Part shown: positions 1,310 through 59,861 of the stretch, one piece after another
Position numbering within the stretch: the first letter of the stretch is position 1
How the letters are laid out: each line of letters opens with the position of its first letter
The notes under the pieces: generated by a model
Told to the model about the DNA's origin: nothing
What the model saw: only the letters and a program-made list of their open reading frames with translations
Database searches by the model: none
From: Alphaproteobacteria bacterium
GTDB taxonomy: Bacteria > Pseudomonadota > Alphaproteobacteria > SHNJ01
Length of the DNA stretch: 64,000 nucleotides
Assembly (NCBI GenBank): GCA_004295055.1
Contig: SHNJ01000031.1
Span: 72,802 to 136,801, forward strand
Direction of reading: 5' to 3'
Position numbers and translations under genes: made by a program

Positions 1310-2281
1310 TTACGGCGTTGGTTTCTTCCGCCGTCCTTCTTGCCATTCAAACAGCACTAAGAACACCGCGGCAATAGCCAATGGCCCCAGCAGATAAATT
1401 ATGCGGAACAACAGCAACGTGCCGAAAATAGTCGGCGCCGAATAATAATTGCCCAGCATCGTCAATACCACCCATTCAAAAACGCCAAGTCCGCCGGGAA
1501 CGTGCGACAGAATGCCGATAGTGGTGCCGATTACATAAATGAAAAAGAAATGCTGATATCCGATGATTTTCGAATCTGGCAACAGGACATATAAAATTGC
1601 CGATGCAACCGCGACATCGGTGACGGTTATTATTAATTGAAATATCGACAATGGCGCCGACGGCATCTTAAATTCAAAACCTTTGAATTGAATCGGATGC
1701 TTGCGATGTCCAACCCAAAATATATACCCCGTTACTATTGCCAGCGTTAGTCCGCCCAATATTTCACTCAGCAACGTTGGCATGAATTCGAACGGTTCCA
1801 AATAATAAGGGAAAAACGCCATCACGAATCCGAAAATGGCGGTTACGCCAATAGAATAGGTTAGAATGCAGAATGCGACGATTTTGGCAACATCGATAGG
1901 GCCAATGCCGCTGTGCCCATAAAGCCGCAATCGTACCGATCCGCCAGTGATCGGAGAAACGCCTAGATTCTGGCTAAAGGCAAATCCCATGAACGAAGCC
2001 ATGAAAATGCGTGGCCAAGGAACCTTTTTACGAACATAGAATAGGGCAGAAGCATCATAACCCGCTAAAACCACATAAGAGATCACGGTAAGCCCTATGG
2101 CCCACCAAACATGGGTGTGTGGGATTGCGGCGATGGCATCCAAAAAGTCCTGCCAGGAGTGCTTTTTAAGGGTTTTATGCAATAGCCAGCCCGCAGCCGA
2201 AAACAAGGCTATGGCCATTAAAGGCCAAAGCATTGAAATGACTTGTTTTGAAGGTTTTAAACGGGCAACCCAGGACATCAT
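1310..2281 (-). CDS. Polytopic membrane protein of the UPF0104 / lysyl-phosphatidylglycerol-synthase TM (flippase-like) family
   Basis: 323 aa with about 8 hydrophobic helices, a Gly-rich C-terminal helix pair and a KK-rich C-terminus, typical of the MprF N-terminal flippase-like domain. No fused synthase domain is present. Confidence 0.55.
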   Translation of the reverse strand: MMSWVARLKPSKQVISMLWPLMAIALFSAAGWLLHKTLKKHSWQDFLDAIAAIPHTHVWWAIGLTVISYVVLAGYDASALFYVRKKVPWPRIFMASFMGFAFSQNLGVSPITGGSVRLRLYGHSGIGPIDVAKIVAFCILTYSIGVTAIFGFVMAFFPYYLEPFEFMPTLLSEILGGLTLAIVTGYIFWVGHRKHPIQFKGFEFKMPSAPLSIFQLIITVTDVAVASAILYVLLPDSKIIGYQHFFFIYVIGTTIGILSHVPGGLGVFEWVVLTMLGNYYSAPTIFGTLLLFRIIYLLGPLAIAAVFLVLFEWQEGRRKKPTP

Positions 2282-4170: not shown

Positions 4171-5352
4171 ATGTCAAAAAATATCTATATCGCCGGTGCG
4201 GCGCGTACCCCGATGGGTGGATTTCAAGGTGAATTATCATCGCTGACGGCACCGCAACTGGGCAGTTATGCTATCAAGGCGGCATTGGAACGTTCGGGCA
4301 TAAAATCAGATTCCATCAATGAAGTTCTTATGGGTTGCGTCTTGCCGGCAGGTTTAGGCCAGGCCCCCGCACGGCAAGCATCCATAGGTGCTGGGATTCC
4401 AATCGGTGTTGGATGCACGACAGTGAACAAAGTCTGTGGTTCGGGATTGAAATCGGTGATGCTGGGTTATGATTCGATTTTGGCGGGACATAACGAAGCG
4501 GTGATCGCAGGCGGCATGGAAAGCATGAGTAACGCGCCATATTTGTTGGAAAAAGCGCGCGGTGGATATCGCCTTGGCCATGGAAAAATTGCCGACAGCA
4601 TGTTTTTGGATGGGCTTGAAGATGCCTATGACCGCGGCCGTTTGATGGGCACATTCGCCGAGGATACGGCGCAGCATTATCAATTTACCCGCGCTCAACA
4701 GGATGAATTCGCGCTGCGATCATTAGACCGCGCGCGCAAAGCAGGTATGGACGGCAGTTTTTCCCGTGAGATTGTTTCGATTGTCATGGACAATAAGAAA
4801 GAAAAAATAACCATCAGTTCAGACGAACAGCCACGTAACGCTAAACCGGAAAAAATTCCGACATTGAAACCGGCTTTCCGCGATGGCGGCACGGTAACGG
4901 CGGCCAATTCCAGTTCCATTTCCGATGGGGCTGCCGCGGTAATTGTTTGCAGCGAAGCGCAAATGCAAAAGTCCGGAGCAAAGCCATTGGCGCGGATTGT
5001 CGCCCATGCGACGCATGCGCAAGAACCAGCCTGGTTTACAACCGCGCCGGTATTTGCCATTAAAAAAGTCGCCGAAAAAGCCGGGTGGAATTTAAAAGAC
5101 GTGGATTTGTTTGAAATTAACGAGGCGTTTGCCGTCGTTACCATGGCCGCGCAACATGAATTGAATTTACCTAATGAAAAGGTCAATATTCGTGGCGGCG
5201 CTTGCGCAATGGGCCATCCGATCGGCGCTTCCGGCGCGCGCGTGTTGGTGACACTAATTCATGCGTTGCAAGATATGAAATTGAAACGTGGTATTGCCAG
5301 CCTGTGCATTGGCGGCGGTGAAGCCGTCGCGATGGCCATAGAAACTATTTAG
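4171..5352 (+). CDS. atoB: Acetyl-CoA C-acetyltransferase (thiolase II)
   Basis: 393 aa with thiolase motifs (VNKVCGSGLKSV active-site Cys; C-terminal NIRGGACAMGHPIGASGARVL…CIGGGEAVAMAIE). Confidence 0.85.
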   Translation: MSKNIYIAGAARTPMGGFQGELSSLTAPQLGSYAIKAALERSGIKSDSINEVLMGCVLPAGLGQAPARQASIGAGIPIGVGCTTVNKVCGSGLKSVMLGYDSILAGHNEAVIAGGMESMSNAPYLLEKARGGYRLGHGKIADSMFLDGLEDAYDRGRLMGTFAEDTAQHYQFTRAQQDEFALRSLDRARKAGMDGSFSREIVSIVMDNKKEKITISSDEQPRNAKPEKIPTLKPAFRDGGTVTAANSSSISDGAAAVIVCSEAQMQKSGAKPLARIVAHATHAQEPAWFTTAPVFAIKKVAEKAGWNLKDVDLFEINEAFAVVTMAAQHELNLPNEKVNIRGGACAMGHPIGASGARVLVTLIHALQDMKLKRGIASLCIGGGEAVAMAIETI

Positions 5353-7148
5353 TCTGCCGGGTGTCCTATTTCAGACGCATTTTCAGTGCAATCTGTCTGT
5401 GGTCCGTTTTTCTGCGCAGTTTCGCATACAATTGTACCATCTGCTGGTGCTGATACTACGTCTTGTCCAGCCGGCAATCCAACAGGAGTGTATGTAGTTG
5501 GTCCTGGATCAACAGAAACTATAGTTTTTGCCGCTGGATCCCAATTGTAAGCCCAATTGGCATGATAATTGGCTAGACCGTGCACGCCAGTGTGTAATAA
5601 TTCAGGATATGTCTGGCTGCAATCTGCAGAATTATTAAGCAAAGTTACAGCCGCATCCGTTTTGCAGTTGGCTGAACTGCGTTCCGGATAAGTGTAAGTA
5701 CGGTCCCGCGCTTGCTGCGAGTTCGATGATAAATAGCAGTAAAATTGATTGGTATTTGGGGAATAGCCTACCACTTGGTGGGCTAACGGTCCGTCACCGT
5801 TGGCCAGAGAGCATGACTCTTCCCATCTGCCATAGGTAGTATCGTTCGCATTCACGCCTTCACAGACGAAAGTGTTGCTGGTCGCGGTTGTTGCGTCCCA
5901 AACAATCTTTTTACCTTCAGGGCATGGCGTTGGGCCGTTTGATGGATTTGGCGGTCTGGAATTTAACAATGTCCACCCACCGGCGCAAATTAGACTGCCA
6001 TCCCGCAATATGATCACGCCTTTACTGCGCGTACCGGGAAAATATGGATGATTATCATAATAACGTTGTGGGCATTCAAAATTGGCTAAACGAGTCATAA
6101 TATCATTCGGTAAAGCCGGATTTGGCCAGGTGCCGTCGGCCGCTACCGGAGAGACCGCATCGTAATATTCATCTACCGCGTACATCGATACGATTTGCCG
6201 GTTTACGTTGTCATAGGTCTCTGTGTTGACTTTTGCTTCGCGAATTTCGATGTCGGCACAGCTCATCCCGTTATTGATAGTTCCATCATTATTGGTGCCG
6301 CGCGAATTCAGGGCGGTTCCAACGGTACAATTTTGAGTTTCATTGCTGCCTGGCGCGGCGGCCAATCCCAGAACATTTCTTTCGCAACGGAACCGGGCTG
6401 GCAAAGTTTCCGCGGTATTGCCATCGCCGTCCTCATCGTTGACATCCACAGCTTGAGGTTTGAATATCATTTCTTCGCCGGCAGGACAGGCGCTTTCGCT
6501 AAGCGTGGTATTTTCCGTTTGCGAACTGCGGATCCATTTCAATGCCTGTGCCGGCGTTACATTGATGTATTTGCTGTTATCGCTTGTTACGCCAGCAGCG
6601 GCAGCGCTGCAAGTCATCATATGATCAGGATATTTGTTTAGAATAAGGGTAAATAATATCGGCGGATTGGCGGGTGCTGGAATATACCCATTTGTGCTGC
6701 TATAGCCGGCTTCTACCGGATAATATGGACAATAACGCATATATCTACGCAAGCTATCTGGCCGCAGTGGGGCCATTTGACGCAAGTTTCTCGGCAATTT
6801 ACCGCCATAAGCATAGGTAGGATTATTGCCTTCCAAAAGAGGAGTGGTAATAGTCGCATCGGAAGTAGTATCGCTGTTATCAGGAAATACGGCTGCAATT
6901 GGATGCACTCTCCCGGTGCTGCGGATATTGTCGCTGGAGGCCCGCGCAATGCTAGAAGCCAATACATTCAACAATGTGTCGTCGGTTATTTTCTCAGCAG
7001 ATTGGCGATTATCTTTTAATGCATTAATGTTCGGCGTAAAGATAGCAGCATTGGCCAGCATGATTAGAACGATAAAAAGCAATAAATGCGATACCATCCC
7101 GCGCTGGCGATTTTGAATGTTATGATATGGTTTCATTCTAAATCTCAT
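5349..7148 (-). CDS. Large cysteine-rich secreted or membrane-anchored protein with prepilin-like leader (no Glu+5)
   Basis: 599 aa. N-terminus is a basic leader ending in QRG|M followed by about 20 hydrophobic residues. About 25 Cys and many N-x-T/S. Third gene of a tightly packed three-gene minus-strand array. Confidence 0.55.
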   Translation of the reverse strand: MRFRMKPYHNIQNRQRGMVSHLLLFIVLIMLANAAIFTPNINALKDNRQSAEKITDDTLLNVLASSIARASSDNIRSTGRVHPIAAVFPDNSDTTSDATITTPLLEGNNPTYAYGGKLPRNLRQMAPLRPDSLRRYMRYCPYYPVEAGYSSTNGYIPAPANPPILFTLILNKYPDHMMTCSAAAAGVTSDNSKYINVTPAQALKWIRSSQTENTTLSESACPAGEEMIFKPQAVDVNDEDGDGNTAETLPARFRCERNVLGLAAAPGSNETQNCTVGTALNSRGTNNDGTINNGMSCADIEIREAKVNTETYDNVNRQIVSMYAVDEYYDAVSPVAADGTWPNPALPNDIMTRLANFECPQRYYDNHPYFPGTRSKGVIILRDGSLICAGGWTLLNSRPPNPSNGPTPCPEGKKIVWDATTATSNTFVCEGVNANDTTYGRWEESCSLANGDGPLAHQVVGYSPNTNQFYCYLSSNSQQARDRTYTYPERSSANCKTDAAVTLLNNSADCSQTYPELLHTGVHGLANYHANWAYNWDPAAKTIVSVDPGPTTYTPVGLPAGQDVVSAPADGTIVCETAQKNGPQTDCTENASEIGHPAD

Positions 7149-7152
7149 TCAT

Positions 7153-8694
7153 TTAATCCACTGCTGTGCATGTAAACCGCGGATTCGGATTTGCATCTTT
7201 TATGAAAGTTAACGAACCTCTTTTGCCGTTAATCGGCGGACATGTATTCGCCGGCATGGCAAAACGAAGCGCTTCAAATATATTGATGCATTGTACCAAT
7301 CTGCGATCGTCCACCCGGGCTTGCATGACATTGTTCACGGGGCATCCGTCACTTGTGCTGTAATGCACGGCGGCATCTTCTGCAAACCCGCCGGCCAGCA
7401 CTGGGTCGTTTAAAATGTAACAGCCAAATCCGCCCATGCTGGAAACAAAGCCGACGTCGAATCCCGCTTTGCATACTCTTAATCCGCCAGCTTGCGCATC
7501 TTCCGGACAGAATGTGCGGCCACTGGCGTAGTATGGCGTAATTCCACCGTTGCAAGCTGTGCGCGCTCCGGGGCCGCCATTTCTTGCCAGGTTGGTATTA
7601 TTGAATGGATAACAAGAAGTATAGCGCGATAGCGCCACTGCGAGCCAATTTCCAGCAGAGCAGGTGCTTAGAACCACATTTTCCGGTATGCCGTTGCATA
7701 TCCTTTGTGTTCCCGTCCAGCGGAATGTTTCGATATGATTGGTGCAAGGAGCGGCAGCGGCCATATCGCCGTCAATTAAAGAGGCAATAGCGCCATTTTC
7801 GTCGAAAATCAATCCAAAGTCGGAACGGGCGCGTGGCGCCACGGTAGAAACGCAGGCCAGTTCTTGATACTCATGTTCTGCATCGCCCTCATGCACCAAT
7901 CGCAATGTCAAGGCGGTGCCTTGTGGGCAAGTAGGTATATTTTCCGCGGCGCTGTCGGATTTCAGGAAAAATGCTGGAATAGTGCTTTCCACGCATTCCC
8001 AATTTTTCTGATCGATATTCCATTGTAAATTTGTAAGTTTACGATCTCTGCCCGTTCCTGTAATTCCGCATGTTGGAATGTTCCCGGCGTTTTCGATAAG
8101 ATTTTTGTAAGCATCCCTGTTAACGTCTCTAACGGTTTTAAAAATACCGATATCGTCGCCTCGGGTAATGCCTTGCATAACATCGTTCTTATTGGTGTCT
8201 ATTTGTCCGTCCGCACCGGGAAGAATCATGGCAAAAGACATTTCGTCCGGATTTGGAATGCCGCCTGCGCCAGACAAGTAATAACCGGCCGGAGCATTAT
8301 CCGTGCTTCGCGGCATATGGATGAAAGCGAAATAAGCAACTTCGCCGAATTTGGTGTTGGCGGAGAATCCAGTCGGCAGTTTGCCACCCCACTCTGGATT
8401 TGGCACATCTCCGTCCTGCATCGATCTGCCGCCGGCAGTCGCCGACATCGCCGGCGCCACTTTCATGACGCCTTGTTGATCCAGATTTGATTCCGCAATA
8501 ATACTGGCCAGTTGTTGTAACTTGTTCCGGGCTTGCACGTTTCTTTGCTGATCGATTAGCTTGTCAAAAATGCCGACATAGCTTCCCGCTAATGTAATGG
8601 CGGCCGCGCTGGCCAGCATGCCGAACAGGACCGGCGCGGCTAAGAAGCCTCTCTGGCTGTTTTTTCTGCGAAATATGGTAAACAGTTTCATCAT
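7153..8694 (-). CDS. Large cysteine-rich secreted or membrane-anchored protein with prepilin-like leader; paralog-like of its two neighbours
   Basis: 513 aa. Leader MMKLFTIFRRKNSQRG|FLAAPVLFGMLASAAAITLAG. Cys/Gly/Asn-rich. 4-nt gap to the downstream gene. Confidence 0.55.
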   Translation of the reverse strand: MMKLFTIFRRKNSQRGFLAAPVLFGMLASAAAITLAGSYVGIFDKLIDQQRNVQARNKLQQLASIIAESNLDQQGVMKVAPAMSATAGGRSMQDGDVPNPEWGGKLPTGFSANTKFGEVAYFAFIHMPRSTDNAPAGYYLSGAGGIPNPDEMSFAMILPGADGQIDTNKNDVMQGITRGDDIGIFKTVRDVNRDAYKNLIENAGNIPTCGITGTGRDRKLTNLQWNIDQKNWECVESTIPAFFLKSDSAAENIPTCPQGTALTLRLVHEGDAEHEYQELACVSTVAPRARSDFGLIFDENGAIASLIDGDMAAAAPCTNHIETFRWTGTQRICNGIPENVVLSTCSAGNWLAVALSRYTSCYPFNNTNLARNGGPGARTACNGGITPYYASGRTFCPEDAQAGGLRVCKAGFDVGFVSSMGGFGCYILNDPVLAGGFAEDAAVHYSTSDGCPVNNVMQARVDDRRLVQCINIFEALRFAMPANTCPPINGKRGSLTFIKDANPNPRFTCTAVD

Positions 8695-8705: not shown

Positions 8706-10238
8706 TTACCTATATATACATTTAAATTTCTTGTTGGTTTCATCCCAACTGACCATTTGGTGTCCGTTGCAAGAACTGCTGGGCGTAACTCTTGTCAATA
8801 ATTCAAACCTATCCAGGCATACATAATTGGTGCCGTCGTGCATGATAAAATCACCCGCTCTGCAAGATGTACGGGTATCGCTATATGGAATGATCCAATT
8901 GCGCGGTTCTTGAGTGTTATTGCTTTCCAAACATTGCGTATTGTTAGTAACCGTCTGGAATTCCAATATTTGATTTGGCTGGCAGGTTTGCTTGACCTCG
9001 AAACTTAAGTTCCCGGCAAAACAGAATAATTTTCCGCGATCGAATACGATGTATGGCCGTCCGGAACAATTGCTGCCGCTTAATAAGCTGCTTGGCATGC
9101 CGAGGCAACGCAAGGTGCCATCGCGGCTTTGGTACAAGGCTTTGAATTGTCCGCCGGATGCTTGGAAATCGCAGCTGCTTGCCAACAGCGGAATGGATAA
9201 GCTTACGCTTGGCGGACCAATTTCATCGCCATACGAAGAAAGACGATCACACCGGAAACTGTAATTGTCGTTGGCCACGCTCGATAACGCGCCAATGGCG
9301 TACCCGCGATAACAGATGCCGGCGGCCAAACGGCCCATATTGATATTCTCCGGCACTTGATTGGCCAATTGATCGACAACCCGGCAACCTAAAGTGCCAT
9401 CGGCATTCAAAGCCAGGCGTTGTGAATCCAAACAGCGGCGTAAACCATGCGAAGAATAATCCTGATTCACAAAATTCATGTAATTGTCGCGGCAGTTCCA
9501 GCTATGCTCTCCGGTGGCATTGCCATCGCCATCCTGCACATTGGTGTATTCCAAAGTTTGCAAGGCCGTACAGGTCGGAACGCCGTTATGCAACAAAGCG
9601 CGGCGATTGGCATTGGCGTGTTCCAACACTTCGCCGTATTTGATAAGTCTAATTTGGTCGTCGCTGCCGTTCACGGGGGTTTCATTCAAAGCATAATTGC
9701 AGGTATACTCAGGCGTACCGTTTTGTCCGTAACTGATAATTGCAAATACAGATTGTTTCATAAGCAGCGTTGTATTAGCTTGAACCTCGCGCCGTCCATT
9801 AGCAACATATGGTGGTACTATATCTTGAAGATTGATAGAACAAATTCGGAAGTCTCTACCGTAAGCATCCTTTCCGATGGTATCTCGCAAATCTACTTCT
9901 TGATTGTTAATAGTTGTCAATAGAGGTTCTATAAAACCCATAGCAGATTGTTCCCACTGCTGCGTATCACCTTCTGGATTAGGTTGAGTTTTGGTGTAAT
10001 ACATGCGCGGCAATTCAAGATAACGATCCCCATCAATATTGCTAATCTTGTTAGCAAGAATATATTCCGCTAATCGGTCTATGTTCTTTTTGGTATTTAA
10101 ATCGCTTTGTGTGGTGCCTACTTTCTGCGCAAGGCCAGCGGTCAGCGTGATCAGCGTGCCCAGCATCGCGACCGACGCGACAAGAGTGGCGATATATGCC
10201 CCGCCAATAAAGCCAGATTGTGATTTAAAAATTTGCAC
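8706..10238 (-). CDS. Large cysteine-rich secreted or membrane-anchored protein with prepilin-like leader; first gene of the array
   Basis: 510 aa. Leader MQIFKSQSG|FIGGAYIATLVASVAMLGTLITL. AT-rich promoter-like region upstream (10239-10518). Confidence 0.55.
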   Translation of the reverse strand: MQIFKSQSGFIGGAYIATLVASVAMLGTLITLTAGLAQKVGTTQSDLNTKKNIDRLAEYILANKISNIDGDRYLELPRMYYTKTQPNPEGDTQQWEQSAMGFIEPLLTTINNQEVDLRDTIGKDAYGRDFRICSINLQDIVPPYVANGRREVQANTTLLMKQSVFAIISYGQNGTPEYTCNYALNETPVNGSDDQIRLIKYGEVLEHANANRRALLHNGVPTCTALQTLEYTNVQDGDGNATGEHSWNCRDNYMNFVNQDYSSHGLRRCLDSQRLALNADGTLGCRVVDQLANQVPENINMGRLAAGICYRGYAIGALSSVANDNYSFRCDRLSSYGDEIGPPSVSLSIPLLASSCDFQASGGQFKALYQSRDGTLRCLGMPSSLLSGSNCSGRPYIVFDRGKLFCFAGNLSFEVKQTCQPNQILEFQTVTNNTQCLESNNTQEPRNWIIPYSDTRTSCRAGDFIMHDGTNYVCLDRFELLTRVTPSSSCNGHQMVSWDETNKKFKCIYR

Positions 10239-10518
10239 CGTTTACAACCCTCGCTCATCCCAAAAAATTAAAGTGGGTTGAACAAAACCTTTTTCCCCAT
10301 CCTCTTATTGTTACTCAGTATGGTTAAGCGGCAGTAAACATCGGATAAAAATATTAGTAATTAAATTACAATATATTGATTTAATGTTATTATTTATTGT
10401 AATTGTAGTACTAAGGTATGAAAAAGCATATCTTGTCTGTTTTTTGGCCAAAAGCGGACTTGTGTTTAAAAGCCGTTTTGGCTAAACATATATCTATAGA
10501 ATTCTAAGGGAGAGAGAA

Positions 10519-11139
10519 ATGGCGCAAGCAAATTTTGGATTAACCGCTGTTGCAGCTATGGGCGCGGTAACGGCTTTTGGTATTGTGCCAGCCAACGCGG
10601 ATATTTGGCTGCATCAGGGTACCAATAACACTAGTTTTGCCACATCGGAAATGATGACAGGAAATGTTACTGGTGTTCAAGTAAATATATCGGGGGACAA
10701 TTTGTGGGCATTTACGGCTCGTGCAACAAGTCAGTATATTACTGTTACCTCTGGTTTTTCAAACCAACCAGGTATGTTTGCAGGGTTTGACATGTTTAGT
10801 AATCCATTACCAGTAGGTTCTGGTTATAATGACGTGGATCAAACAGGCATAAATATGACTATGAATATTGGTGCTCAGAATGTTGGTCAACTAATTACCC
10901 TAGTTTTTGCTAATTATGGTATGGTTCCACTCAGCAATGGATCGGATTTGTATGACGTTGGAAGCTCTGGACAAATTAATCCATTGTTTATGGGTGCATG
11001 GAATGGCACAGGGGGTCAGAATCAATTTGGCGTCGAAACTCGCGTATACGAAATTACTGGCATTACCGGTGTTCCAGCTCCGGGTGTGTTGACCTTGGCT
11101 ATGGCTGGCGGTTTATTGGCCGCGCGTCGCCGCCGCTAA
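10519..11139 (+). CDS. Secreted protein with PEP-CTERM-like C-terminal sorting tail
   Basis: RBS GGGAGAGAGAAATG. Signal peptide …GIVPANA|D. C-terminus GVPAPGVLTLAMAGGLLAARRRR is a P-x-P, hydrophobic helix, Arg-cluster arrangement. Paralog of 11365-11985. Confidence 0.65.
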   Translation: MAQANFGLTAVAAMGAVTAFGIVPANADIWLHQGTNNTSFATSEMMTGNVTGVQVNISGDNLWAFTARATSQYITVTSGFSNQPGMFAGFDMFSNPLPVGSGYNDVDQTGINMTMNIGAQNVGQLITLVFANYGMVPLSNGSDLYDVGSSGQINPLFMGAWNGTGGQNQFGVETRVYEITGITGVPAPGVLTLAMAGGLLAARRRR

Positions 11140-11164
11140 TCGATAAAGATCAAATTTTGATTCA

Positions 11165-11195
11165 AAAGGCCTGGGTGAAACCCAGGCCTTTTTAT
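11165..11195 (+). terminator. Rho-independent terminator
   Basis: GGCCTGGG-TGAAA-CCCAGGCC hairpin followed by TTTTTAT. Confidence 0.7.
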
Positions 11196-11364
11196 ATGTG
11201 CGCACGAATAATTAATACTATCGTATGATTATAATATAATTATACTAATATGAAATAAAATTAGCAATATAATTGCAAGGATGGCTAAGAATCATTTTGC
11301 CAACCAAATGGTAAGTGGATTATAAATGCTTACTTCAAAAACTACTTTTTTCGTGGAGAGAAAA

Positions 11365-11985
11365 ATGGTCCGAGCAAATTTTGGAATGATTGCCGCCTTT
11401 ACCGCGGCCACCGCTTTCGGCACACAAGCGAATGCAGATATTTGGGAACAACATGGCAGCGACAACACCGCTTTTGCGACATCGGAAAGAATGACCGGCC
11501 GCGAAATTGACGGAATTGAGTACAGTGTTACTGGCGATAATTTATTTGCCTTTACTGGCGTTGCAAATAGTCGATTTATTACCATTATTTCCCCTGCATC
11601 TAACCAGCCTGGTATTGTGTATGTCCTGGACAAAGATGGAAAACCATTTCCAGTAGGTTCAGGTTATAATGACATTACACAAGAGGGCGTCGATATGATT
11701 ATCGATATTGGCGATGCCAATGTCGGTAAAGAAATCACTTTCGTATTTGGTAATTACGGCACGTTGGCGCAAAATGGCGAAACTCCGCTTTTTAATGATT
11801 ACGAATGCGGCCAAATCGATCCAGATGTGGTTGCGACATGGACTCTGACTGGTGGTCAAAATCAATTTGGTTCCGAAACTCGTGTTTGTTTCTTCGGCGA
11901 GGGAGAAGTTCGCGGTGTGCCAAAAGTAAGCACCACGACGGCGACGGCAGCAGCAAGAGCCAGAGCCACGCGCTGTTGCGACTAA
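11365..11985 (+). CDS. Secreted paralog of 10519-11139 with degenerate (Thr/Ala-rich) C-terminal tail
   Basis: Start moved to MVRANFG… (RBS GGAGAGAAAAATG, matching its paralog). Shared blocks are ANFG…TAFG…ANADIW, PVGSGYND and TGGQNQFG.ETRV. C-terminus is VPKVSTTTATAAARARATRCCD. Confidence 0.6.
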   Translation: MVRANFGMIAAFTAATAFGTQANADIWEQHGSDNTAFATSERMTGREIDGIEYSVTGDNLFAFTGVANSRFITIISPASNQPGIVYVLDKDGKPFPVGSGYNDITQEGVDMIIDIGDANVGKEITFVFGNYGTLAQNGETPLFNDYECGQIDPDVVATWTLTGGQNQFGSETRVCFFGEGEVRGVPKVSTTTATAAARARATRCCD

Positions 11986-12000
11986 CAATTAGATAGAATA

Positions 12001-12034
12001 AAAAAAGCCCGGTTTAATCCGGGCTTTTTTATTG
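12001..12034. terminator. Bidirectional rho-independent terminator
   Basis: AAAAAAA-GCCCGG-TTTAAT-CCGGGC-TTTTTTATT. It lies between two convergent genes (11365-11985 on + and 12048-12428 on -). Confidence 0.75.
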
Positions 12035-12047
12035 GGAGTATTTAACC

Positions 12048-12428
12048 TTAGCTTTCATAATTATCATTCGCGAACATGGCGGCGACGCCCGCACCGAAAT
12101 GATTTTCGATGCGGTAATATTGAATTTCCCGGTCGTTAAAATAATTTTGTTTTTTTAGCAAATTTTGCAGCAACGATTGCTTGCGGCGGTATTCGCGGTA
12201 CGCCTTGGCGATCAGGCGCGGGATCGCCTCGGAAATATCGACGATGTTTTTCGCGCCGAATCCCGCAACCGGCATTTCCGCTTGCCACATTCTGTAATGC
12301 CGCAAAGTTTGCAACATCCAATACCGCAGCAATTGAATCTCAGCGCGCATGGCGCAAATCAGCATTTTTGTCTGGCGCGGATTGGCGGGTACAAAATAAA
12401 AACCCGGCCCGGCGAATTCTTGGTTCAT
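12048..12428 (-). CDS. Small protein of unknown function; paralog A of 14172-14540
   Basis: 126 aa with RBS AGGGAGAGC. The C-terminal 43 aa and about 150 nt are near-identical to 14172-14540 (…[47 protein letters not shown]). Transcribed divergently from an XRE regulator. Confidence 0.6.
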   Translation of the reverse strand: MNQEFAGPGFYFVPANPRQTKMLICAMRAEIQLLRYWMLQTLRHYRMWQAEMPVAGFGAKNIVDISEAIPRLIAKAYREYRRKQSLLQNLLKKQNYFNDREIQYYRIENHFGAGVAAMFANDNYES

Positions 12429-12606
12429 AAAAAGCTCTCCCTAAATATTAATTTTTGTTGGTTACGAGGGGTAAAATAGGCCTAAATGGTTAATGAATGG
12501 TTAATTTATAGATAGAAATCATAAAAAATATTACTAATATTCATTTTTTTTATGATTTATCTTGATAATGGGATTCAGGCCTTCTAAAACAAAGCAGGGT
12601 AAGACT
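12429..12606. promoter_or_regulatory. Divergent AT-rich promoter region with GGTTAAT direct repeats (candidate operator)
   Basis: TGGTTAATGAATGGTTAAT at 12487-12505 lies between divergent genes. An analogous GGTTAAT…GTTAAT is in the paralogous region 14754-14772. Confidence 0.35.
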
Positions 12607-13251
12607 ATGACTTTGGATGCTTCTCAAATCCGCGCCGCACGCGCCTTGTTGGACTGGACAATCGAAGATTTGGCCAAAATTACCGGCTTGAGCAAGGATT
12701 CCATCAAAAATGTAGAGCGTGGGCATACTCAACCCCGTATAAATACCCGAATTGTTATAGAAGAAGCTTTTGAAAAAGCAGGCATCGAATTTTTGCCGGG
12801 TTCTGGCGTGCGCAAGAAAAATAATTTAATAACGACCTTAACCGGCGAATACGCCAATCGGCAATTGCTGGATGATGTGTATGCAACCCTTGTGGCTCGG
12901 GAAAATGCGTGTGTCTATATTACCGGCGTCAAGGAAACACAAAGCATCGATAGTGTGGATTATGAATATTTGGAAAAACATATTCAACGCTTATTGAAAG
13001 CGAATATTAAAGAAAAATTGATTGTTGAAGAAGGCGATTCCACTTTTATAGCGCCTTCATACAGCTATCGGTGGATAGCAGAACAATATTTTGAGAATGT
13101 ACCCATCCAAGTTTATGGCGATAAAATCGCCTTTGTGGATTGGGGGCCGCCGGAGCAAATCGTTATCATTCAAAACAAAGGATTTGCCATGGCTATGCAG
13201 AAACTGCTGGATTTCGCATGGCAAAACTGCGCCGTGCCTAAAGGCTTGTAA
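12607..13251 (+). CDS. XRE-family helix-turn-helix transcriptional regulator with uncharacterised C-terminal domain
   Basis: Start set to MTLDASQIRAARALLDWTIEDLAKITGLSKDSIKNVERG (HTH). Same length as, and colinear with, paralog 14937-15584 (conserved EEGD…YRW…VY.DK.A). Confidence 0.6.
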   Translation: MTLDASQIRAARALLDWTIEDLAKITGLSKDSIKNVERGHTQPRINTRIVIEEAFEKAGIEFLPGSGVRKKNNLITTLTGEYANRQLLDDVYATLVARENACVYITGVKETQSIDSVDYEYLEKHIQRLLKANIKEKLIVEEGDSTFIAPSYSYRWIAEQYFENVPIQVYGDKIAFVDWGPPEQIVIIQNKGFAMAMQKLLDFAWQNCAVPKGL

Positions 13252-13252
13252 A

Positions 13253-14119
13253 ATGATGCATATATCCGGAAAGCTAAAGCAAATCGTATCCTTAGGGCCA
13301 GAAAATTTCGACTTTCTGAAAGCGGCCAATAACAACGACAGTTATCAATTGTCGCCTACATATTATTTGTTTACCGGAAGAAAAGGTTTATGGGTGTTGG
13401 AACAGGATGGGCAAGCGGCTTTAATTGCTAAGCATCCTAACTTAGAAGACGAATTGTTGGTATTTTATCCTAATGGATATTGCCCAAATCTAGAGCATCA
13501 AGTTTTACATCATGTTCCGCGTAACAGCCGATTAAAAGCTGCAAGACTAGCCGTTTGCGCAAATTCTAATCTCAATGCAGTTATGGATGAGGAACTATTC
13601 TTAGATTGGCGTTACCCAGTCTGCATACTGGATACTGCGTATGTTGGAAAACTGCGCGGCAGGTTATTAGAGGATGTAAAGAACAATTATAATAGAGCCG
13701 CTAGAACGATTTGTAGAATTGAGGCTTACAATCCGGCTGCGCATAAAGATCGCATGAGAGAATTGATTCAACAATGGCATCGCCCGGAAGCGCATGATGG
13801 ATATGAAGGGCTATTAAATATTATGGAACGAATGCCGGGAAATTTCGGCTTAATCGCTCTAACAGAAGAATCTATCGCGGGGTTTATTCACTGGGAAATG
13901 CCATGGAAACCGGGGAGTCCGGCTAATTCTCTGGCCTTGATTGTTGACAAAAGCATTAAAGGATTAAGCGAATTTATGATGGTGGAAATGTGCCGCGCGT
14001 TGGTGCAGACCGGATGCCTTGCTGTCAATATAGGTGGGTCTGAAACCGAAAGCCTTCATTATTTTAAAAGCAAATTTAATCCAAAAATGGTGGATCTGCG
14101 TAATTATAATTATGCTTAA
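13253..14119 (+). CDS. Stand-alone DUF2156 / phosphatidylglycerol-lysyltransferase C-terminal-like (FemXAB/GNAT-fold) protein; putative aminoacyl-tRNA-dependent transferase
   Basis: Start re-set to the ATG 1 nt after the regulator stop (MMHISGKLKQ…); the track's 13091 start overlaps the regulator. C-terminal signature …GSETESLHYFKSKFNPKMVDL matches the FK.KF.P motif that ends MprF C-domains. Confidence 0.5.
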   Translation: MMHISGKLKQIVSLGPENFDFLKAANNNDSYQLSPTYYLFTGRKGLWVLEQDGQAALIAKHPNLEDELLVFYPNGYCPNLEHQVLHHVPRNSRLKAARLAVCANSNLNAVMDEELFLDWRYPVCILDTAYVGKLRGRLLEDVKNNYNRAARTICRIEAYNPAAHKDRMRELIQQWHRPEAHDGYEGLLNIMERMPGNFGLIALTEESIAGFIHWEMPWKPGSPANSLALIVDKSIKGLSEFMMVEMCRALVQTGCLAVNIGGSETESLHYFKSKFNPKMVDLRNYNYA

Positions 14120-14171
14120 AGATTAATACTTTTTAAGTAGTACAATGCGCGGCGAGGCAGCTAATATGGCG

Positions 14172-14540
14172 TTAGGCATAATTATCGTTCGCGAACATGG
14201 CGGCGACGCCCGCGCCGAAATGATTTTCGATGCGGTAATATTGAATTTCCCGGTCGTTAAAATAATTTTGTTTTTTTAGCAAATTCTGCAACAACGATTG
14301 CTTGCGGCGGTATTCGCGCAACGATTGGTTGATCAATCCCTGCACTTTGCTTTGCATATTGGCGATTTTTTTTGCCGGCAATGCGCCGTCATTGTTCATT
14401 TCCGCGCGCCAGGATTTATAATTCTGCAAAGTTTGCAGCATCCAATAACGTAGCAAGCGGATTTCCGCTTCCATCGCCTCGGCTAAATTTTGACTTTTGC
14501 CTTTGGTGTTGGCATTGGTTTTATTTTGTTGTGCTGGCAT
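14172..14540 (-). CDS. Small protein of unknown function; paralog B of 12048-12428
   Basis: 122 aa with RBS AAGGGAG. C-terminus identical to paralog A. Preceded on the same strand by a 47-aa ORF. Confidence 0.6.
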   Translation of the reverse strand: MPAQQNKTNANTKGKSQNLAEAMEAEIRLLRYWMLQTLQNYKSWRAEMNNDGALPAKKIANMQSKVQGLINQSLREYRRKQSLLQNLLKKQNYFNDREIQYYRIENHFGAGVAAMFANDNYA

Positions 14541-14560
14541 ATCTCGCTCCCTTAACTCCG

Positions 14561-14704
14561 TTAGGCCGCTTTTTGTACTTTGCGCATTTCTTCAACTACG
14601 TTCAGCGCAAAATAGGGGCCATATTTAATTTCCAAATACTCATAAATTTCTTCTTCGCTCATCATCGCGTAATTTGGTTTGGTATTTTGATTCGCGTAAT
14701 CCAT
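14561..14704 (-). CDS. Small ORF (47 aa) not in the supplied track: MDYANQNTKPNYAMMSEEEIYEYLEIKYGPYFALNVVEEMRKVQKAA
   Basis: Read by hand on the minus strand. ATG at 14704, stop TAA at 14561-14563. It ends 20 nt before the RBS and ATG of 14172-14540, an operon-like spacing. Acidic/aromatic, no signal peptide. Confidence 0.35.
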   Translation of the reverse strand: MDYANQNTKPNYAMMSEEEIYEYLEIKYGPYFALNVVEEMRKVQKAA

Positions 14705-14710
14705 CTCTAG

Positions 14711-14936
14711 TCCCTTAGTTCCCGTTGTTGGCAACGAGAGAATAGGATCATAAGGTTAATCAAAAGTTAATTCAATAGAAAAAATATCTAATAACGATAT
14801 ATTTTATGCCTTTTATAGATGGTATTATACACAAATTATTGATATATAATGATAATATTCCATCCAGAAAAATAAAAAATGACGATATTTTTTATATGTT
14901 CTTGCAATATGTTTTATATCTTGTTATGCAGAAAAC
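14711..14936. promoter_or_regulatory. Divergent AT-rich promoter region with GGTTAAT-N6-GTTAAT repeat (candidate operator)
   Basis: GGTTAATCAAAAGTTAATT at 14754-14772. Same position relative to the regulator gene as in cassette 1. Confidence 0.35.
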
Positions 14937-15584
14937 ATGATAGACGCCAAACAAATACGCGCCGCGCGCGCTTTGCTGAATTGGTCGCGGGAGGAGCTGG
15001 CCGAACAAACGGGGATTTCCGTCCCCGCGCTTGCTCGCGCCGAAACGGGCGAATCGCAATTGCGCACGACTAGCGCCGAGAAAATCAAATCATCGTTGGA
15101 GCAGGCGGGTGTAATTTTTACGGATGGCAGTGGTGTGAAGCTCAAAACGGATTTGGTACAAATTTATGAAGGTGAAAATTGCTATCTAAAATTGCTGGAA
15201 GATTTTGAAGACCTGAATGTTAAAGGAGAAAAAGAAATTCTGTTCAGTTCTGCTTCTGAAAAAAGATCAACGGATGAGGTTATTGAGAAAACGCGTCTTC
15301 TAAGAAAAAAAGGCATTAAGATGCGCTTTCTTTTGGAGGAAGGCGACACATACATAATGGGTGACCTTTCAGAATATAGATGGATGCATAAAAGTTTATT
15401 TTCCAAGGGTGACGTAAAGCTAGTGTATGCGGATAAAGTCGCTTATTTGGTTAGTTGGATGGAAACACCTCGTGTTGTAGTTGTTTCTGAGAAAAACATT
15501 GCTGAAGAAAATCGAAGAGCGTTTGAATTTATTTGGAATATATCGAAGAAACCGACGCACAGCGATGCGGACATTTCATATTGA
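14937..15584 (+). CDS. XRE-family HTH transcriptional regulator; paralog of 12607-13251
   Basis: MIDAKQIRAARALLNWSREELAEQTGISVPALARAETG HTH. C-terminal domain colinear with its paralog. Confidence 0.6.
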   Translation: MIDAKQIRAARALLNWSREELAEQTGISVPALARAETGESQLRTTSAEKIKSSLEQAGVIFTDGSGVKLKTDLVQIYEGENCYLKLLEDFEDLNVKGEKEILFSSASEKRSTDEVIEKTRLLRKKGIKMRFLLEEGDTYIMGDLSEYRWMHKSLFSKGDVKLVYADKVAYLVSWMETPRVVVVSEKNIAEENRRAFEFIWNISKKPTHSDADISY

Positions 15585-15592
15585 GGCGCAGA

Positions 15593-16309
15593 ATGTTCGA
15601 AATCAAAATTAAAACGTCAAAAAATCAAATCGCCTTATATAATCGCTGTGTATTGGGCGTAAGTCTAGATAGCAATAATCACAGAGGTGATCGTCTGGCG
15701 GCATTGGTAGAATGGGCTAATGATAATTTTAAAGATTGCATCGTCGATCTTACCGATACTTTGCATCGGTATAATCACATGGCGGATCTAAAATTGTCGG
15801 AAAACGATGCCAGATTGAAAGCCCATATTCAGGGCGATCAGTGGCTGCAAGAATCATATCACATATTATCCAATTTCAAGATTCCATATTGCATTCTGCG
15901 GTGGGATGCATGGAAATATAATCATAAGTTTATAAGGTATCTGCATATGTTTGAAAGCGCATTCGCGGTCGATAAAAATTTCCGTGAAGCTGTTATGTAT
16001 GATGTTAATTTATTTTTAGGCAGAAGAAAAGCTCTTGGCAGTCCAACCACGGAGCAATTATGCGTTACCTATTTATTGGAAGAACTTGCTGGTCAATCCT
16101 TATTGTATGAACAATTTCCAGCTGCTGAGATTTATCCGGGTAAACAACAAAAAAGCTTTGGATTAGTGCGTGCTGGGAAAGTGCCTAATGTGCCAACTGG
16201 TTTGCAGAATTCCTGTTTTGTAAGCCTGTATCTGCATGACAAGAGTGCGGGGTTATTTGGTTCCGCCAATGACGATGCAGATTTTGCTGATTTAAGAAAA
16301 ATGGGTTGA
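15593..16309 (+). CDS. Cyclodipeptide synthase (CDPS)-like tRNA-dependent enzyme
   Basis: Start set to the ATG 9 nt after the regulator stop (MFEIKIKT…, 238 aa). Motifs colinear with AlbC-type CDPS are: LGVSLDSNN (the G-x-S catalytic-Ser loop); LVEWANDNF…IVDLTDT (compare LLQWAGQRF…VVYVDT); TYLLEE (the Y…E pair); and SLYLHD (the late Tyr). Confidence 0.65.
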   Translation: MFEIKIKTSKNQIALYNRCVLGVSLDSNNHRGDRLAALVEWANDNFKDCIVDLTDTLHRYNHMADLKLSENDARLKAHIQGDQWLQESYHILSNFKIPYCILRWDAWKYNHKFIRYLHMFESAFAVDKNFREAVMYDVNLFLGRRKALGSPTTEQLCVTYLLEELAGQSLLYEQFPAAEIYPGKQQKSFGLVRAGKVPNVPTGLQNSCFVSLYLHDKSAGLFGSANDDADFADLRKMG

Positions 16310-18886: not shown

Positions 18887-21046
18887 CTATTTACTAGGCC
18901 TAGAAGACTGCATGCGTTTTACCCGGGCCATATGTTCTGCCCTGGTGCCGCGTATAAGGCTATCGATAGTGCTGGTATAACGGGCCGTAAACTTTTGGGG
19001 ATCGGGAGTGTAGTATAAGCCATTTCTATTGGCTAACGCCGCGATTTTGCCTAGATCGCAGGTTTCCGCGAAAGGCTCTTCCAAAAAAGCTTGTATTGAT
19101 GCGATAGACCTCATTTCCAAAGACATTTGCAGCAATTTCGCAAGTACTGCTAAAGAAGCCAGGCTATGTTCCGAATAGGCAGTAAGTTGGGGCCGTCTCA
19201 TCTGCTGGGGTATTAGAATTTGTTCCATGCAATCGTATAAATCCATCACCGCATCCTTGTTAGGTGCAGGCGCGAATATTTGCTGTAAAACATGTCTCGG
19301 AATTGCATAGCCTTTCGGTACAACCCAATTTTCCAGCGACCAGGAAGAAATAGAAGCATTGGCGCGGTCAATTTCTTCCCGGTTGTGGGCTTGACCTGTA
19401 ATCTGCGCGTGTGCCAGGGAAACTGTGCGATAAGTTCTTCTGTAAATAGGTTTCAGCGCTGTCTGGATGCAAACGTCAACACTGTACTTTAGTACAAGAT
19501 ACAAAAACTTCATTTGTCTATCGCTAACGCAGACTCCGTATCCGGACGCTTTGGCCGCTGCACATAAATCATTGAATTGTATCGGTGCGGAAAAGGGCCT
19601 TGCGGCGTGTGCCGCGAAACTGTCAGGTCCATGGGGATCGAATGTCATAAGACGATACGCCATCGCCCAATCTTCTATACTGAAGGATAAAGGAAACTGA
19701 GTATGTTTATGGCTATATATATTTGCAAACCCATGCGGGAAAAAGGCGAGCGCAATGGCGTGGGCTGCCGTCACGATAGCGTTGTCTTTACCCTTGATAA
19801 GGTTTTCTAAATAGGATGATCGGATAAAAAAACCCGGCGGAATTGCTAAACCCGGTACCAAAGTTTGCGCCAATGGAATGTATTGCGTTGGAAATGGCTT
19901 GCGCAAGTCGGCAAAAGGATCGGTGGCTGGATCTTCGGCCAGATGGATATCGATATCGTATAACAGCACCCGTTCTTTCGGCAGAACATCTTTGATGAGC
20001 GGCATTTTTGGCGCATCCAAGGGGGGTGTGGCGGCTTGGATGATTGCGGTGGGCAGGGCCGGTTGCGCTATATCCGCGCGCTGCGCCTGGTGTTGATACA
20101 AACCGTGCGCTTCCAAGATTGCGCGCATGTTTTTGCGCAGCAAATGTTTTACTTTTCCGAATGCTTCACCCACATCGCTGTCGGCCGTTATTCCGGTGAT
20201 TTGACGCAAAGCTTTGGCGCGGATGTCGATAATGGTTGTATCCCGGCGATAAGGTTGAGCAAAGTTTTTTTGATCCGGGCGGATTCCAAATTCCAATATC
20301 TTGTCCAGGATAGCCAATTCTGTCGGGCTGAAAACTGGTCTCGCACCCAAGCGCAATATACCGGCCAATTCTTGCATCAATTGATTGATACTATTCCAAT
20401 ATCCACTATGGTTTTCGTATTCCATGGGCGGCAACAATAATAACCCGGTTAATGCCAGGGCATAGCCGGTTTCCGCTTGTTGGCGCGCCTCGGGTGTAGA
20501 AAGATCGGCTAAATCGTACCCGCGCAATCGCAACCCGATGGGAATAGTGGGGCAGGATTTATCATGTGTCGTAAGTTCATTCAGAACAGGCAAATGAATA
20601 TGGCGGTCGACAGCAGTGGCTGGTTCAGGTTCTTCGGCATCGGTCAGATTCACGAATCCGAGGCCGGATAGAAAATCCGTCCGTGTTTTTCCGATTTCCA
20701 GAAGATCCCTGTATTTCTTCAGATCAAATTTTTCAGCAGTGTCGGCGGTGATATAACCGGTAACGGCTAAGGCGATTGCGAAATTTTTCAACGCGCCAGG
20801 ATCTACAATGGTAATACGTCCGCCTTTGGGGTGGTATTTCGTCAGAACAATTCCATTGGTATCATAAACCTTAAAATTATGGCCATCGCGCACATGCTGG
20901 AAACCCAATCCAACGCATAGTTTTTCAAATTGCGCCTGGTCGATTTCCGTTACGCTGCTGCGGGAGAAAATAGCCGTTAACAGGCCGCGTTGGCCGTCGC
21001 CCAAACCGGCAATAACGGCATGATCGATTGGTGTTATTCTTGTCAT
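18887..21046 (-). CDS. Large hypothetical protein (719 aa) with HicA/YcfA-like N-terminal region; inserted inside the liu cluster
   Basis: No global family recognised. Residues about 40-95 (LGFQHVRDGHNFKVYDTNGIVLTKYHPKGGRITIVDPGALKNFAIAL) follow the HicA pattern GF..vR..GsHh.f…g..vtvP.H.gk.l..gtl..Il. Confidence 0.45.
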   Translation of the reverse strand: MTRITPIDHAVIAGLGDGQRGLLTAIFSRSSVTEIDQAQFEKLCVGLGFQHVRDGHNFKVYDTNGIVLTKYHPKGGRITIVDPGALKNFAIALAVTGYITADTAEKFDLKKYRDLLEIGKTRTDFLSGLGFVNLTDAEEPEPATAVDRHIHLPVLNELTTHDKSCPTIPIGLRLRGYDLADLSTPEARQQAETGYALALTGLLLLPPMEYENHSGYWNSINQLMQELAGILRLGARPVFSPTELAILDKILEFGIRPDQKNFAQPYRRDTTIIDIRAKALRQITGITADSDVGEAFGKVKHLLRKNMRAILEAHGLYQHQAQRADIAQPALPTAIIQAATPPLDAPKMPLIKDVLPKERVLLYDIDIHLAEDPATDPFADLRKPFPTQYIPLAQTLVPGLAIPPGFFIRSSYLENLIKGKDNAIVTAAHAIALAFFPHGFANIYSHKHTQFPLSFSIEDWAMAYRLMTFDPHGPDSFAAHAARPFSAPIQFNDLCAAAKASGYGVCVSDRQMKFLYLVLKYSVDVCIQTALKPIYRRTYRTVSLAHAQITGQAHNREEIDRANASISSWSLENWVVPKGYAIPRHVLQQIFAPAPNKDAVMDLYDCMEQILIPQQMRRPQLTAYSEHSLASLAVLAKLLQMSLEMRSIASIQAFLEEPFAETCDLGKIAALANRNGLYYTPDPQKFTARYTSTIDSLIRGTRAEHMARVKRMQSSRPSK

Positions 21047-32689: not shown

Positions 32690-32927
32690 GTCCGTATACA
32701 GTCCGTTTTACAAATTAAAATGTCATTCTCAGCGGAACGGCGTACCTAAAGCTCTGAATAGCAAAAGATATTCGCTCGGCTCAGAATGACATATGGATAA
32801 AGCTTATAATGGCATTTATAGCCGTTTCAGCGCCAAAAGCCAAGGAAATAATCGTGCGCCGATCTTTTTTGATTTTGCCAAGCGTATCGGCCAATATTGG
32901 CTTAATAAATATAAAAAGGGGTGTTGG

Positions 32928-59240: not shown

Positions 59241-59861
59241 TTATCTGGAAAATAATTTCCGCAGATGCGCGTGCAACGGTCTGAGTTGGCGTCCCGCAAA
59301 ATGTTGTTCAACCATTTTTGGATTCCTGGCAAGCCAGGCAAGCCTGTGTTGGTGCGCTGTTTCCATATTTGCAAATATGGTGGGATGGTTGACTAATGCC
59401 TTGGCCAGAACAAGCTTTCTGCTTTTCAAAATCATAAGGGGGTTTGGCGCCGCGATAGGACGGATGCCCAATAATGCTTCTATGATTTGATTTTCATGTC
59501 CATCGCCGTAAATACCGGCCATAAAGAGAGCAACCATCGCCGTGCTGCGCGCCATCCCATGTTGACAATGTACAATTAAGTCTTGATGAGGATGTGCGCG
59601 TAAAAAACTTAAACCTTGTGCAACCATAGCAACTGTTGGCGAGAGAGGTTTAAGCGGTTGGGTTATATCGAAATACACCTGAACATTCTGCGCATAAACC
59701 CGGCCGGTAAGATCGGGGGCTTTACCTTTGCCTTCTTGCGCCTCTGGATGTTCGATCGATAAAACAGCAGGTGGCGAAGAACATGCAGCGATTCTGTCTG
59801 GAAGTTCGTCGACGCCGCAAACGGTGATTCGTTGGTTTGTTGGTAATGTTATAAAGCTCAC
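59241..59861 (-). CDS. Dual-specificity / tyrosine-protein phosphatase-like protein
   Basis: 206 aa with CX5R P-loop HCQHGMARS. Confidence 0.65.
   Translation of the reverse strand: MSFITLPTNQRITVCGVDELPDRIAACSSPPAVLSIEHPEAQEGKGKAPDLTGRVYAQNVQVYFDITQPLKPLSPTVAMVAQGLSFLRAHPHQDLIVHCQHGMARSTAMVALFMAGIYGDGHENQIIEALLGIRPIAAPNPLMILKSRKLVLAKALVNHPTIFANMETAHQHRLAWLARNPKMVEQHFAGRQLRPLHAHLRKLFSR

Follow-up and report, generated by a model that had tools for sequence, protein, structure and literature searches.

A 64,000-nucleotide stretch of the assembly GCA_004295055.1 from an Alphaproteobacteria bacterium (contig SHNJ01000031.1, positions 72,802 to 136,801, forward strand), referred to here as the window, contains two adjacent genes, A and B, encoding exported paralogs that share a core domain and differ in how they end. 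The tail of protein A appears to be a conserved variant of the PEP-CTERM class of sorting signals, and that of protein B is a distinct, conserved hydrophilic C terminus. Both proteins (GenBank TAH32670.1 and TAH32671.1) are encoded on a 269.9-kb contig of a metagenome-assembled genome. In window coordinates, the features of the pair are:

10519 to 11139, plus strand: gene A, 206 amino acids (TAH32670.1, EYC62_08000), an exported protein with a tripartite C-terminal tail of sorting type
10509 to 10521, plus strand: ribosome-binding site of gene A together with its start codon (GGAGAGAGAAATG), read from the sequence, with a copy at 11355 to 11367 (87% repeat D7)
10519 to 10599, plus strand: signal peptide of A (MAQANFGLTAVAAMGAVTAFGIVPANA, then DIW), by inspection; conserved in all family members
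10600 to 11067, plus strand: core domain of A, about 156 amino acids, Cys-free and predicted to be all-beta; a strain-variable cassette in the related species described below
11068 to 11085, plus strand: signature G-V-P-A-P-G of the A tail, at the PEP-CTERM position in the PF07589 alignment, with Ala where Glu is expected
11086 to 11124, plus strand: hydrophobic helix of the A tail (VLTLAMAGGLLAA), best 14-residue Kyte-Doolittle mean 1.90
11125 to 11136, plus strand: basic cluster RRRR of the A tail (CGT CGC CGC CGC), followed by the stop codon; from the sequence
11167 to 11195, plus strand: terminator of gene A, a hairpin with a T-run (AGGCCTGGGTGAAACCCAGGCCTTTTTAT), by inspection
11365 to 11985, plus strand: gene B, 206 amino acids (TAH32671.1, EYC62_08005), an exported paralog without a membrane-spanning tail
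11365 to 11436, plus strand: signal peptide of B (MVRANFGMIAAFTAATAFGTQANA, then DIW), by inspection and aligned with that of A
11437 to 11913, plus strand: core domain of B, with conserved Cys148 (11806 to 11808) specific to the B type
11914 to 11982, plus strand: tail of B (GVPKVSTTTATAAARARATRCCD), hydrophilic, with 20 codons past GVP as in A and a conserved terminal RCCD (11971 to 11982)
12004 to 12032, no strand assigned: terminator of gene B, a GC-rich hairpin with T/A runs on either side, from a terminator scan and sequence reading

The original prediction, made from the sequence alone, described A and B as paralogous secreted proteins, and both parts of that description hold; the two reading frames also lie at the coordinates given there and have the C termini it described. 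BLASTP aligns the two at 47% identity over 177 residues (E = 5e-54), including the blocks PVGSGYND and TGGQNQFG.ETRV, and both N termini have, by inspection, the look of Sec signal peptides, with a hydrophobic core followed by A-N-A ahead of DIW. Between the signal peptide of A and its tail, a hydropathy scan finds no membrane segment. A longer open reading frame (ORF) is possible for gene B from an in-frame ATG at 11326; we take 11365 as the true start because the ATG there is preceded by GGAGAGAAAAATG, a copy of the ribosome-binding site of gene A, and because the N termini of the orthologs agree. The two genes are read as separate single-gene units, since each has its own terminator and non-coding DNA ahead of it (280 nt for A and 225 nt for B). 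The consensus terminator scan did not list the terminator of gene A, and sub-threshold Rfam matches to small RNAs at and around both genes are caused by the terminator hairpins. A candidate third paralog, a 206-residue ORF at 59241 to 59861, proved unrelated to either protein.

The same locus, in the order of three large genes (described below), A and B, is found in a related species (L001, L002 and L009, together with a second strain, L007), whose A proteins have 62% and 54% identity with the A protein of the window.

The tail of protein A

Protein A ends in G-VPAPG, a helix of 13 to 14 residues (G189/V190 to A202), RRRR and the stop codon. No other ORF in the 64 kb ends with a hydrophobic helix and a basic cluster positioned as in a sorting signal, and the arrangement is kept in every A-type relative, so that chance does not explain the tail. 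Conservation extends to proteins P0001, P0002 and P0003 and to the distant P0006, whose core is only 24 to 26% identical, and the Kyte-Doolittle mean stays at 1.9 to 2.1 across all A-type tails. The signature reads VPAPG in the window, VPTAG in L001 and VPTPG in the two others, with Glu in none of the four.

PEP-CTERM signals are defined by a near-invariant Pro-Glu-Pro, a 14-residue helix and a basic cluster of about five residues at the C terminus, together with co-occurrence with EpsH (PMC1569441). Proteins bearing them typically have a signal peptide and no other homology, are encoded in single-gene operons after long intergenic regions, occur in many copies per genome (median 8) and belong to bacteria with an outer membrane; in Proteobacteria, an upstream sigma-54 element (GG at -24, GC at -12) was found at 99 of 167 such genes (PMC1569441). 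A scan for GG-N10-GC sites that agree with the consensus at 8 or more of 11 positions and are conserved between the window and L001 found no such element upstream of A or B.

The isolated A tail aligns with positions 2 to 24 of the 24-position PF07589 profile at 15.8 bits, below the cutoff of 20.7, and TIGR02595 reports no match on protein A of the window, so that the search by hidden Markov model (HMM) does not support the PEP-CTERM assignment at curated thresholds. Changing the Ala to Glu in silico raises the PF07589 score to 22.4 bits, above the cutoff, and with TIGR02595 (cutoff 16) two relatives altered in this way reach 18.6 and 25.1 bits; the Glu-restored tails overall score 22.4, 18.6, 25.1 and 27.3 bits. 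In its native form, the isolated tail of P0006 (AVPTPGSVALLAMAGLVAARRRR) just reaches the TIGR02595 cutoff, at 16.1 bits. The A tail also weakly matches the C termini of many curated PEP-CTERM families, and the sole, weak match of whole protein A in NCBIfam (E = 0.018) is to the C terminus of the exosortase-dependent protein XDP1.

Judged by its sequence, the A tail thus appears to be PEP-CTERM in all respects except the Glu, that is, a conserved Glu-less variant of a PEP-CTERM-class signal. Protein A of the window fails strict PEP-CTERM membership, because it lacks the Glu, scores below the HMM cutoffs and has no sigma-54 element upstream. The tail had originally been called PEP-CTERM-like, with Ala in place of Glu, which is right for the architecture.

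No exosortase gene lies in the window, as had been noted originally: its six polytopic ORFs belong to the MprF-TM, EamA, aquaporin, LolC/E, LysE and CdsA families, and the remaining regions hold housekeeping genes or encode non-membrane proteins whose function is unknown. The host is a diderm, with BamA (POTRA/Omp85), OmpH, LpxD, LpxA, LpxI and LpxB encoded just past the right end of the window on the same contig; LolC/E inside the window is consistent with an outer membrane.

The tail of protein B

Twenty codons separate Gly-Val-Pro from the stop codon in both genes (A, APGVLTLAMAGGLLAARRRR; B, KVSTTTATAAARARATRCCD). The Arg codons CGC-CGC-CGC of A align with TGT-TGC-GAC in B, and Leu, Val and Met codons of A align with Thr, Ala and Arg codons of B, so that the best Kyte-Doolittle mean is 0.17 in the B tail versus 1.90 in the A tail. 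Neither alternative frame of the 3' end of B codes for a hydrophobic helix, in agreement with the original observation that B has no hydrophobic tail and that no other frame restores one; the +1 frame (APRRRRQQQEPEP) was considered and rejected, as it lies behind a stop codon and results from repeated ACG/GCG codons. From the equal codon count and register and the lack of a helix in the other frames, the two tails differ by an in-frame series of substitutions and not by a frameshift.

The B orthologs of the related species end in GVPRVKTVNPAGAARALAAQRCCD, with identical tails in L001 and L007. Across species, the tail keeps the pattern GVP.V.T...AARA.A..RCCD with a length constant to within one residue and RCCD invariant. 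The window tail matches that of the ortholog at 11 of 21 positions, a value that none of 20,000 composition-preserving shuffles reached (3.2 +/- 1.3 identities). Between species, synonymous divergence (dS) of gene B is saturated at 1.75 to 2.15, so the conservation of the tail points to constraint, and the ratio of nonsynonymous to synonymous divergence (dN/dS) is 0.15 to 0.17 between species and 0.15 to 0.28 overall. The ORF is intact in three genomes. The B-type proteins share a core Cys (in Glu/Asp-Cys-Gly-Gln), absent from A, and the terminal Cys-Cys, and they form one clade across species, which places the A/B duplication before the species split.

These figures (11 of 21 cross-species identities, invariant RCCD, dS of at least 1.75, dN/dS of 0.15 to 0.28) do not bear out the earlier description of the B tail as eroded. 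B is instead a maintained gene with a distinct, conserved C terminus; given the equal length and register, this tail may have descended from an A-like one. An overlapping RNA or other nucleic-acid element in the B tail, prompted by 63 nt of DNA identity between L001 and L007, was rejected, because these 63 nt belong to the generally identical flanks of two strains of the same species.

One core domain with three C-terminal modules

The family comprises eight full-length proteins in all searches, which included word-indexed searches of 5.8 billion clusters and an exhaustive profile search of 1.84 billion representatives; the 185,579 species genomes of GTDB and the JGI metagenomes gave one match each. 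Two further proteins from the profile search, P0007 and P0008, are repeat proteins and were discarded. Whole proteins A and B have no sequence match in Pfam, in NCBIfam above cutoff or in the PDB. AlphaFold2 models show a beta-rich core and a disordered B tail at low confidence (predicted local distance difference test, pLDDT, 47 and 58), and Foldseek returned no significant neighbor for either model.

In one member, P0005, a core 47 to 52% identical to those of other members is followed by a 66-residue acidic extension in place of the short tail. The extension contains two DVLDFLD.. repeats, ends in G-C-D and aligns with all 67 positions of the GC-type dockerin model NF041540 (E = 6e-6; 26.6 bits, below the cutoff of 29). 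A partial gene upstream of P0005 (L004, positions 3 to 152, plus strand) also ends in a GC-type dockerin tail (...LDAFGLGCD). P0005 further adjoins a gene for a 685-residue VKOR-thioredoxin-DsbA fusion, a disulfide-forming enzyme (L004, 955 to 3012, minus strand). Window proteins A and B have no NF041540 match and no dockerin repeats. We found no paper that uses the term GC-type dockerin, and a look among plasmids at how other proteins of this type end gave no match.

Three kinds of C-terminal module therefore occur on one core domain: a membrane-sorting signal, a docking domain and the RCCD tail. Such a combination fits a protein whose role depends on attachment outside the cytoplasm. The C-D terminus common to the P0005 and B tails is two residues long, and we regard it as a possible lead, not as evidence.

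Cassette-like variation between strains

The neighbors of A and B that enter into this comparison are:

8706 to 10238, minus strand: big3, divergent from A; 510 amino acids, 18 Cys, N-terminal KSQSGF followed by a helix; residues ~47 to 191 variable in the related species
5349 to 8694, minus strand: genes for two large Cys-rich proteins (599 and 513 amino acids) in an operon-like run with big3, syntenic with A/B in every genome that shows the context
10239 to 10378, no strand assigned: non-coding block between big3 and A, ~88% identical across species at saturated dS; no Rfam match

L001 and L007 are of the same species, and much of the locus is nearly identical between them: the flanks are 99 to 100% identical, the intergenic regions 93 to 99%, and the proteins of the large genes big1 and big2 99% (dS 0.008 and 0.026). 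The A core falls to 47 to 64% identity with a dS of 2.75, leaving the whole protein 57% identical, and the B core to 72 to 83% with a dS of 0.96, while the signal-peptide and tail codons of both genes stay near flank values (dS of the A signal peptide, 0.21). For big3, dS is 0.21 and is concentrated in one patch of ~430 nt (L001, 9113 to 9546; roughly 9666 to 10100 in the window) just past the N-terminal helix; this patch, residues ~47 to 191, is 53 to 84% identical, elsewhere big3 is 97 to 100% identical, and the patch adjoins the variable A and B cores. In a further sequence, L003, the A allele of L001 (dS 0.007) is joined to the B allele of L007 (dS 0), which indicates that A and B alleles reassort. 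A 36-nt identical run and ~90 nt of 80 to 82% identity between A and B in L001 may reflect gene conversion, a match that is suggestive only. For the window's own population, the available assemblies contain no variants.

The cassettes are the product of an exchange of old, divergent alleles through conserved flanking segments and not of a recent burst of mutation. Exposed structures under diversifying or balancing selection typically vary in this way, which suggests that A, B and part of big3 are surface-exposed.

Neighboring genes and other features of the window

With a third strain-variable cassette in the related species, big3 is probably part of the same surface module as A and B. The three large ORFs between 5349 and 10238 (minus strand; 599, 513 and 510 amino acids) have no Pfam or NCBIfam match, and BLASTP finds no paralogy among them. 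They contain 16, 16 and 18 Cys, counts that are kept in the related species, and all start with a basic stretch, Q-[RS]-G-[MF] and a helix of ~20 residues, which resembles a class III prepilin without the Glu at +5. The block at 10239 to 10378, which immediately precedes the start of big3, shows higher conservation than the genes on either side and may serve gene A or the operon of large genes as a leader or regulatory element.

Downstream of B, positions 12048 to 16309 form a duplicated module of low GC content (0.40 to 0.42). Two minus-strand ORFs (12048 to 12428, 126 amino acids; 14172 to 14540, 122 amino acids) have near-identical C-terminal ~45 residues and share a 159-nt repeat (93%). 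An HTH_3 protein follows each of them (12562 to 13251; 14937 to 15584), and beyond these lie an LPG_synthase_C-like protein (13091 to 14119) and a cyclodipeptide-synthase-like protein (15533 to 16309); aminoacyl-tRNA is the substrate in both of the latter Pfam families. Independent assemblies break at 12123, within the 159-nt repeat. The MprF-like flippase/TM domain (1310 to 2281, minus strand) and the LPG_synthase_C-like protein (plus strand) are encoded by separate genes ~11 kb apart and not by one bifunctional MprF. Amid housekeeping genes lie five ORFs without a Pfam match, none of them polytopic: 18887 to 21046 (minus strand, 719 amino acids), 28509 to 30836 (plus, 775), 32793 to 33737 (plus, 314), 33826 to 34914 (plus, 362) and 44015 to 45544 (plus, 509).

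Discussion

We favor, with about even confidence, the reading that A and B form a small surface module that varies between strains and whose attachment tails are interchangeable. The two would be beta-rich proteins of the envelope or surface, exported by Sec and encoded as a tandem pair of ancient origin; their very small, lineage-restricted family would join one core domain to exchangeable modules for C-terminal attachment. The A tail, with VP-[A/T]-[P/A]-G, a helix of 13 to 14 residues and RRRR, would be a functional signal of the PEP-CTERM class. To go by this architecture, once the signal peptide is cleaved the tail would hold A in the inner membrane with RRRR in the cytoplasm, and an exosortase-type enzyme encoded elsewhere would most likely cleave near VPxPG and pass A to the cell surface. 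B, which has its export signal and core in common with A, would be released from the membrane, given its non-membrane RCCD tail and B-specific core Cys, and we speculate that it is retained by disulfide bonding or partner binding. The A core, the B core and the patch of the pilin-like big3 would be replaced as divergent cassettes between near-identical strains by recombination through the conserved signal-peptide, tail and intergenic segments, as would follow from diversifying or balancing selection on exposed structures, for example in phage, predator or kin recognition.

Several findings weigh against this reading. The near-invariant Glu of PEP-CTERM is missing in all four A-type tails, the L001 tail (VPTAG) also lacks the second Pro, and protein A of the window scores below the curated cutoffs. 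GVP is also kept in the B-type and dockerin-type members, so that "VP" may be the end of the core rather than part of a sorting motif. Neither the window nor the flanks examined beyond both its ends (~81 kb in all) contain an exosortase, only one tail of this kind, that of gene A, occurs in the 64 kb, and no sigma-54 element is conserved upstream of A or B. The two structure models are poor and without a fold match. With a dN/dS of ~0.3, the cassettes show exchange of ancient alleles rather than demonstrated positive selection; surface exposure is what we infer from the tails and the variability together.

The main rival, which we consider somewhat unlikely, is that the A tail is a mere stop-transfer anchor, with A a bitopic inner-membrane protein that has a periplasmic domain and no dedicated sorting enzyme. 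The missing Glu, the non-invariant second Pro, the presence of GVP in members that are not anchored and the lack of an exosortase, a second substrate or a sigma-54 element in the sequence examined all favor such an anchor, as do the similar, sub-cutoff scores against the PEP-CTERM, MYXO-CTERM, GVDTG, GC_trans_RRR and LPXTG models. However, an anchor does not readily account for a Pro/Gly-rich signature, a helix of 13 to 14 residues and an exact RRRR end kept down to 24% core identity; the PEP-CTERM alignment spans the motif positions as well as the helix, with a single residue explaining the score deficit, and cassette-type strain variability is unexpected for an inner-membrane protein facing the periplasm.

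There is a slim chance that the A tail is a sorting signal for a protease other than an exosortase, whether of the myxosortase/CPBP type, a rhombosortase or one as yet undescribed. The tail scores alike against MYXO-CTERM and other tripartite-signal models: 15.8 to 17.5 bits for the tails with MYXO-CTERM (TIGR03901; cutoff 20), 16.8 bits for the isolated window tail with GC_trans_RRR (TIGR03382; cutoff 15.85) and 20.3 bits for the P0006 tail with PGAP-CTERM (cutoff 25). The GC_trans_RRR match, however, covers profile positions 5 to 27 only, which are the helix and the Arg cluster. Signals of the MYXO-CTERM type require an invariant Cys (PMC11980579, PMC3325183), and the A-type proteins, with no Cys at all, lack it. 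For GlyGly-CTERM and rhombosortase, no Gly-Gly precedes the A helix and the sole match is one of 11 bits to MprA_tail on P0006, and the sequence examined contains no CPBP or rhomboid gene.

The least probable alternative, and one largely refuted, is that loss of function has left B as a decaying copy with an eroded PEP-CTERM tail: tails equal in length and register, CGC CGC CGC facing TGT TGC GAC and the lack of any family model matching the B tail would suit decay, but the intact ORF and low dN/dS, the conserved tail with its invariant RCCD at saturated dS, the B-specific core Cys, the retention of its own ribosome-binding site and terminator and a duplication that predates the species split all speak against it.

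A bolder extension of the surface-module reading, improbable as a whole, would make the Glu-less VP[A/T][P/A]G-helix-RRRR a distinct signal with its own undescribed exosortase subfamily, the RCCD of B a minimal attachment signal of a new kind (such as a disulfide tether to the Cys-rich pilin-like neighbors) with an evolutionary link to the Cys that ends GC-type dockerin tails, and A, B and the big3 patch a polymorphic recognition module that exchanges specificity cassettes.

C-terminal sorting signals are the main route to predicting the surface proteomes of uncultured diderm bacteria. The interest of the present case lies in the consistent absence of the PEP-CTERM Glu while the other parts of the signal stay, in a single passenger found with three C-terminal modules, which amounts to a natural experiment on the exchange of attachment modes, and in passenger domains swapped as cassettes between near-identical strains. 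If the A tail is processed, exosortase recognition extends beyond its known range or a new subfamily is indicated; if it is not, the case cautions against PEP-CTERM calls made from architecture alone. The practical importance is modest, as the family is tiny and of unknown function.

Comparison with known systems

The closest known system is PEP-CTERM/exosortase (EpsH, XrtA; PMC1569441). Gene A shares with it the signal peptide, the Pro signature, the helix of ~14 residues and the Arg cluster at the stop codon, as well as a passenger without known homologs, a long intergenic region ahead of each single-gene unit and a diderm proteobacterial host, and the A-type tails align end to end with the TIGR02595/PF07589 models. 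It differs in that the Glu of Pro-Glu-Pro is Ala or Thr in every A-type member and window A is sub-cutoff, with no sigma-54/PrsR-type element upstream and no exosortase or further substrates in ~81 kb.

A second likeness is to the GC-type dockerin (NF041540), which P0005 matches over its full length; the B tail of the window also ends in C-D, with a Cys at -2, and starts from the same junction after GVP. Unlike that system, window A and B have neither repeats nor a match to the model, and P0005 itself, at 26.6 bits, stays below the cutoff of 29.

A third comparison is with the substrates of myxosortase, including the polymorphic receptor TraA (PMC11980579, PMC3325183). The A-type proteins lack the invariant Cys of these substrates, come from Alphaproteobacteria and not Myxococcota, and carry a passenger without sequence similarity to theirs. 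What the two have in common is the tripartite tail and the combination of a sorting tag with a strain-variable domain, which is a functional analogy.

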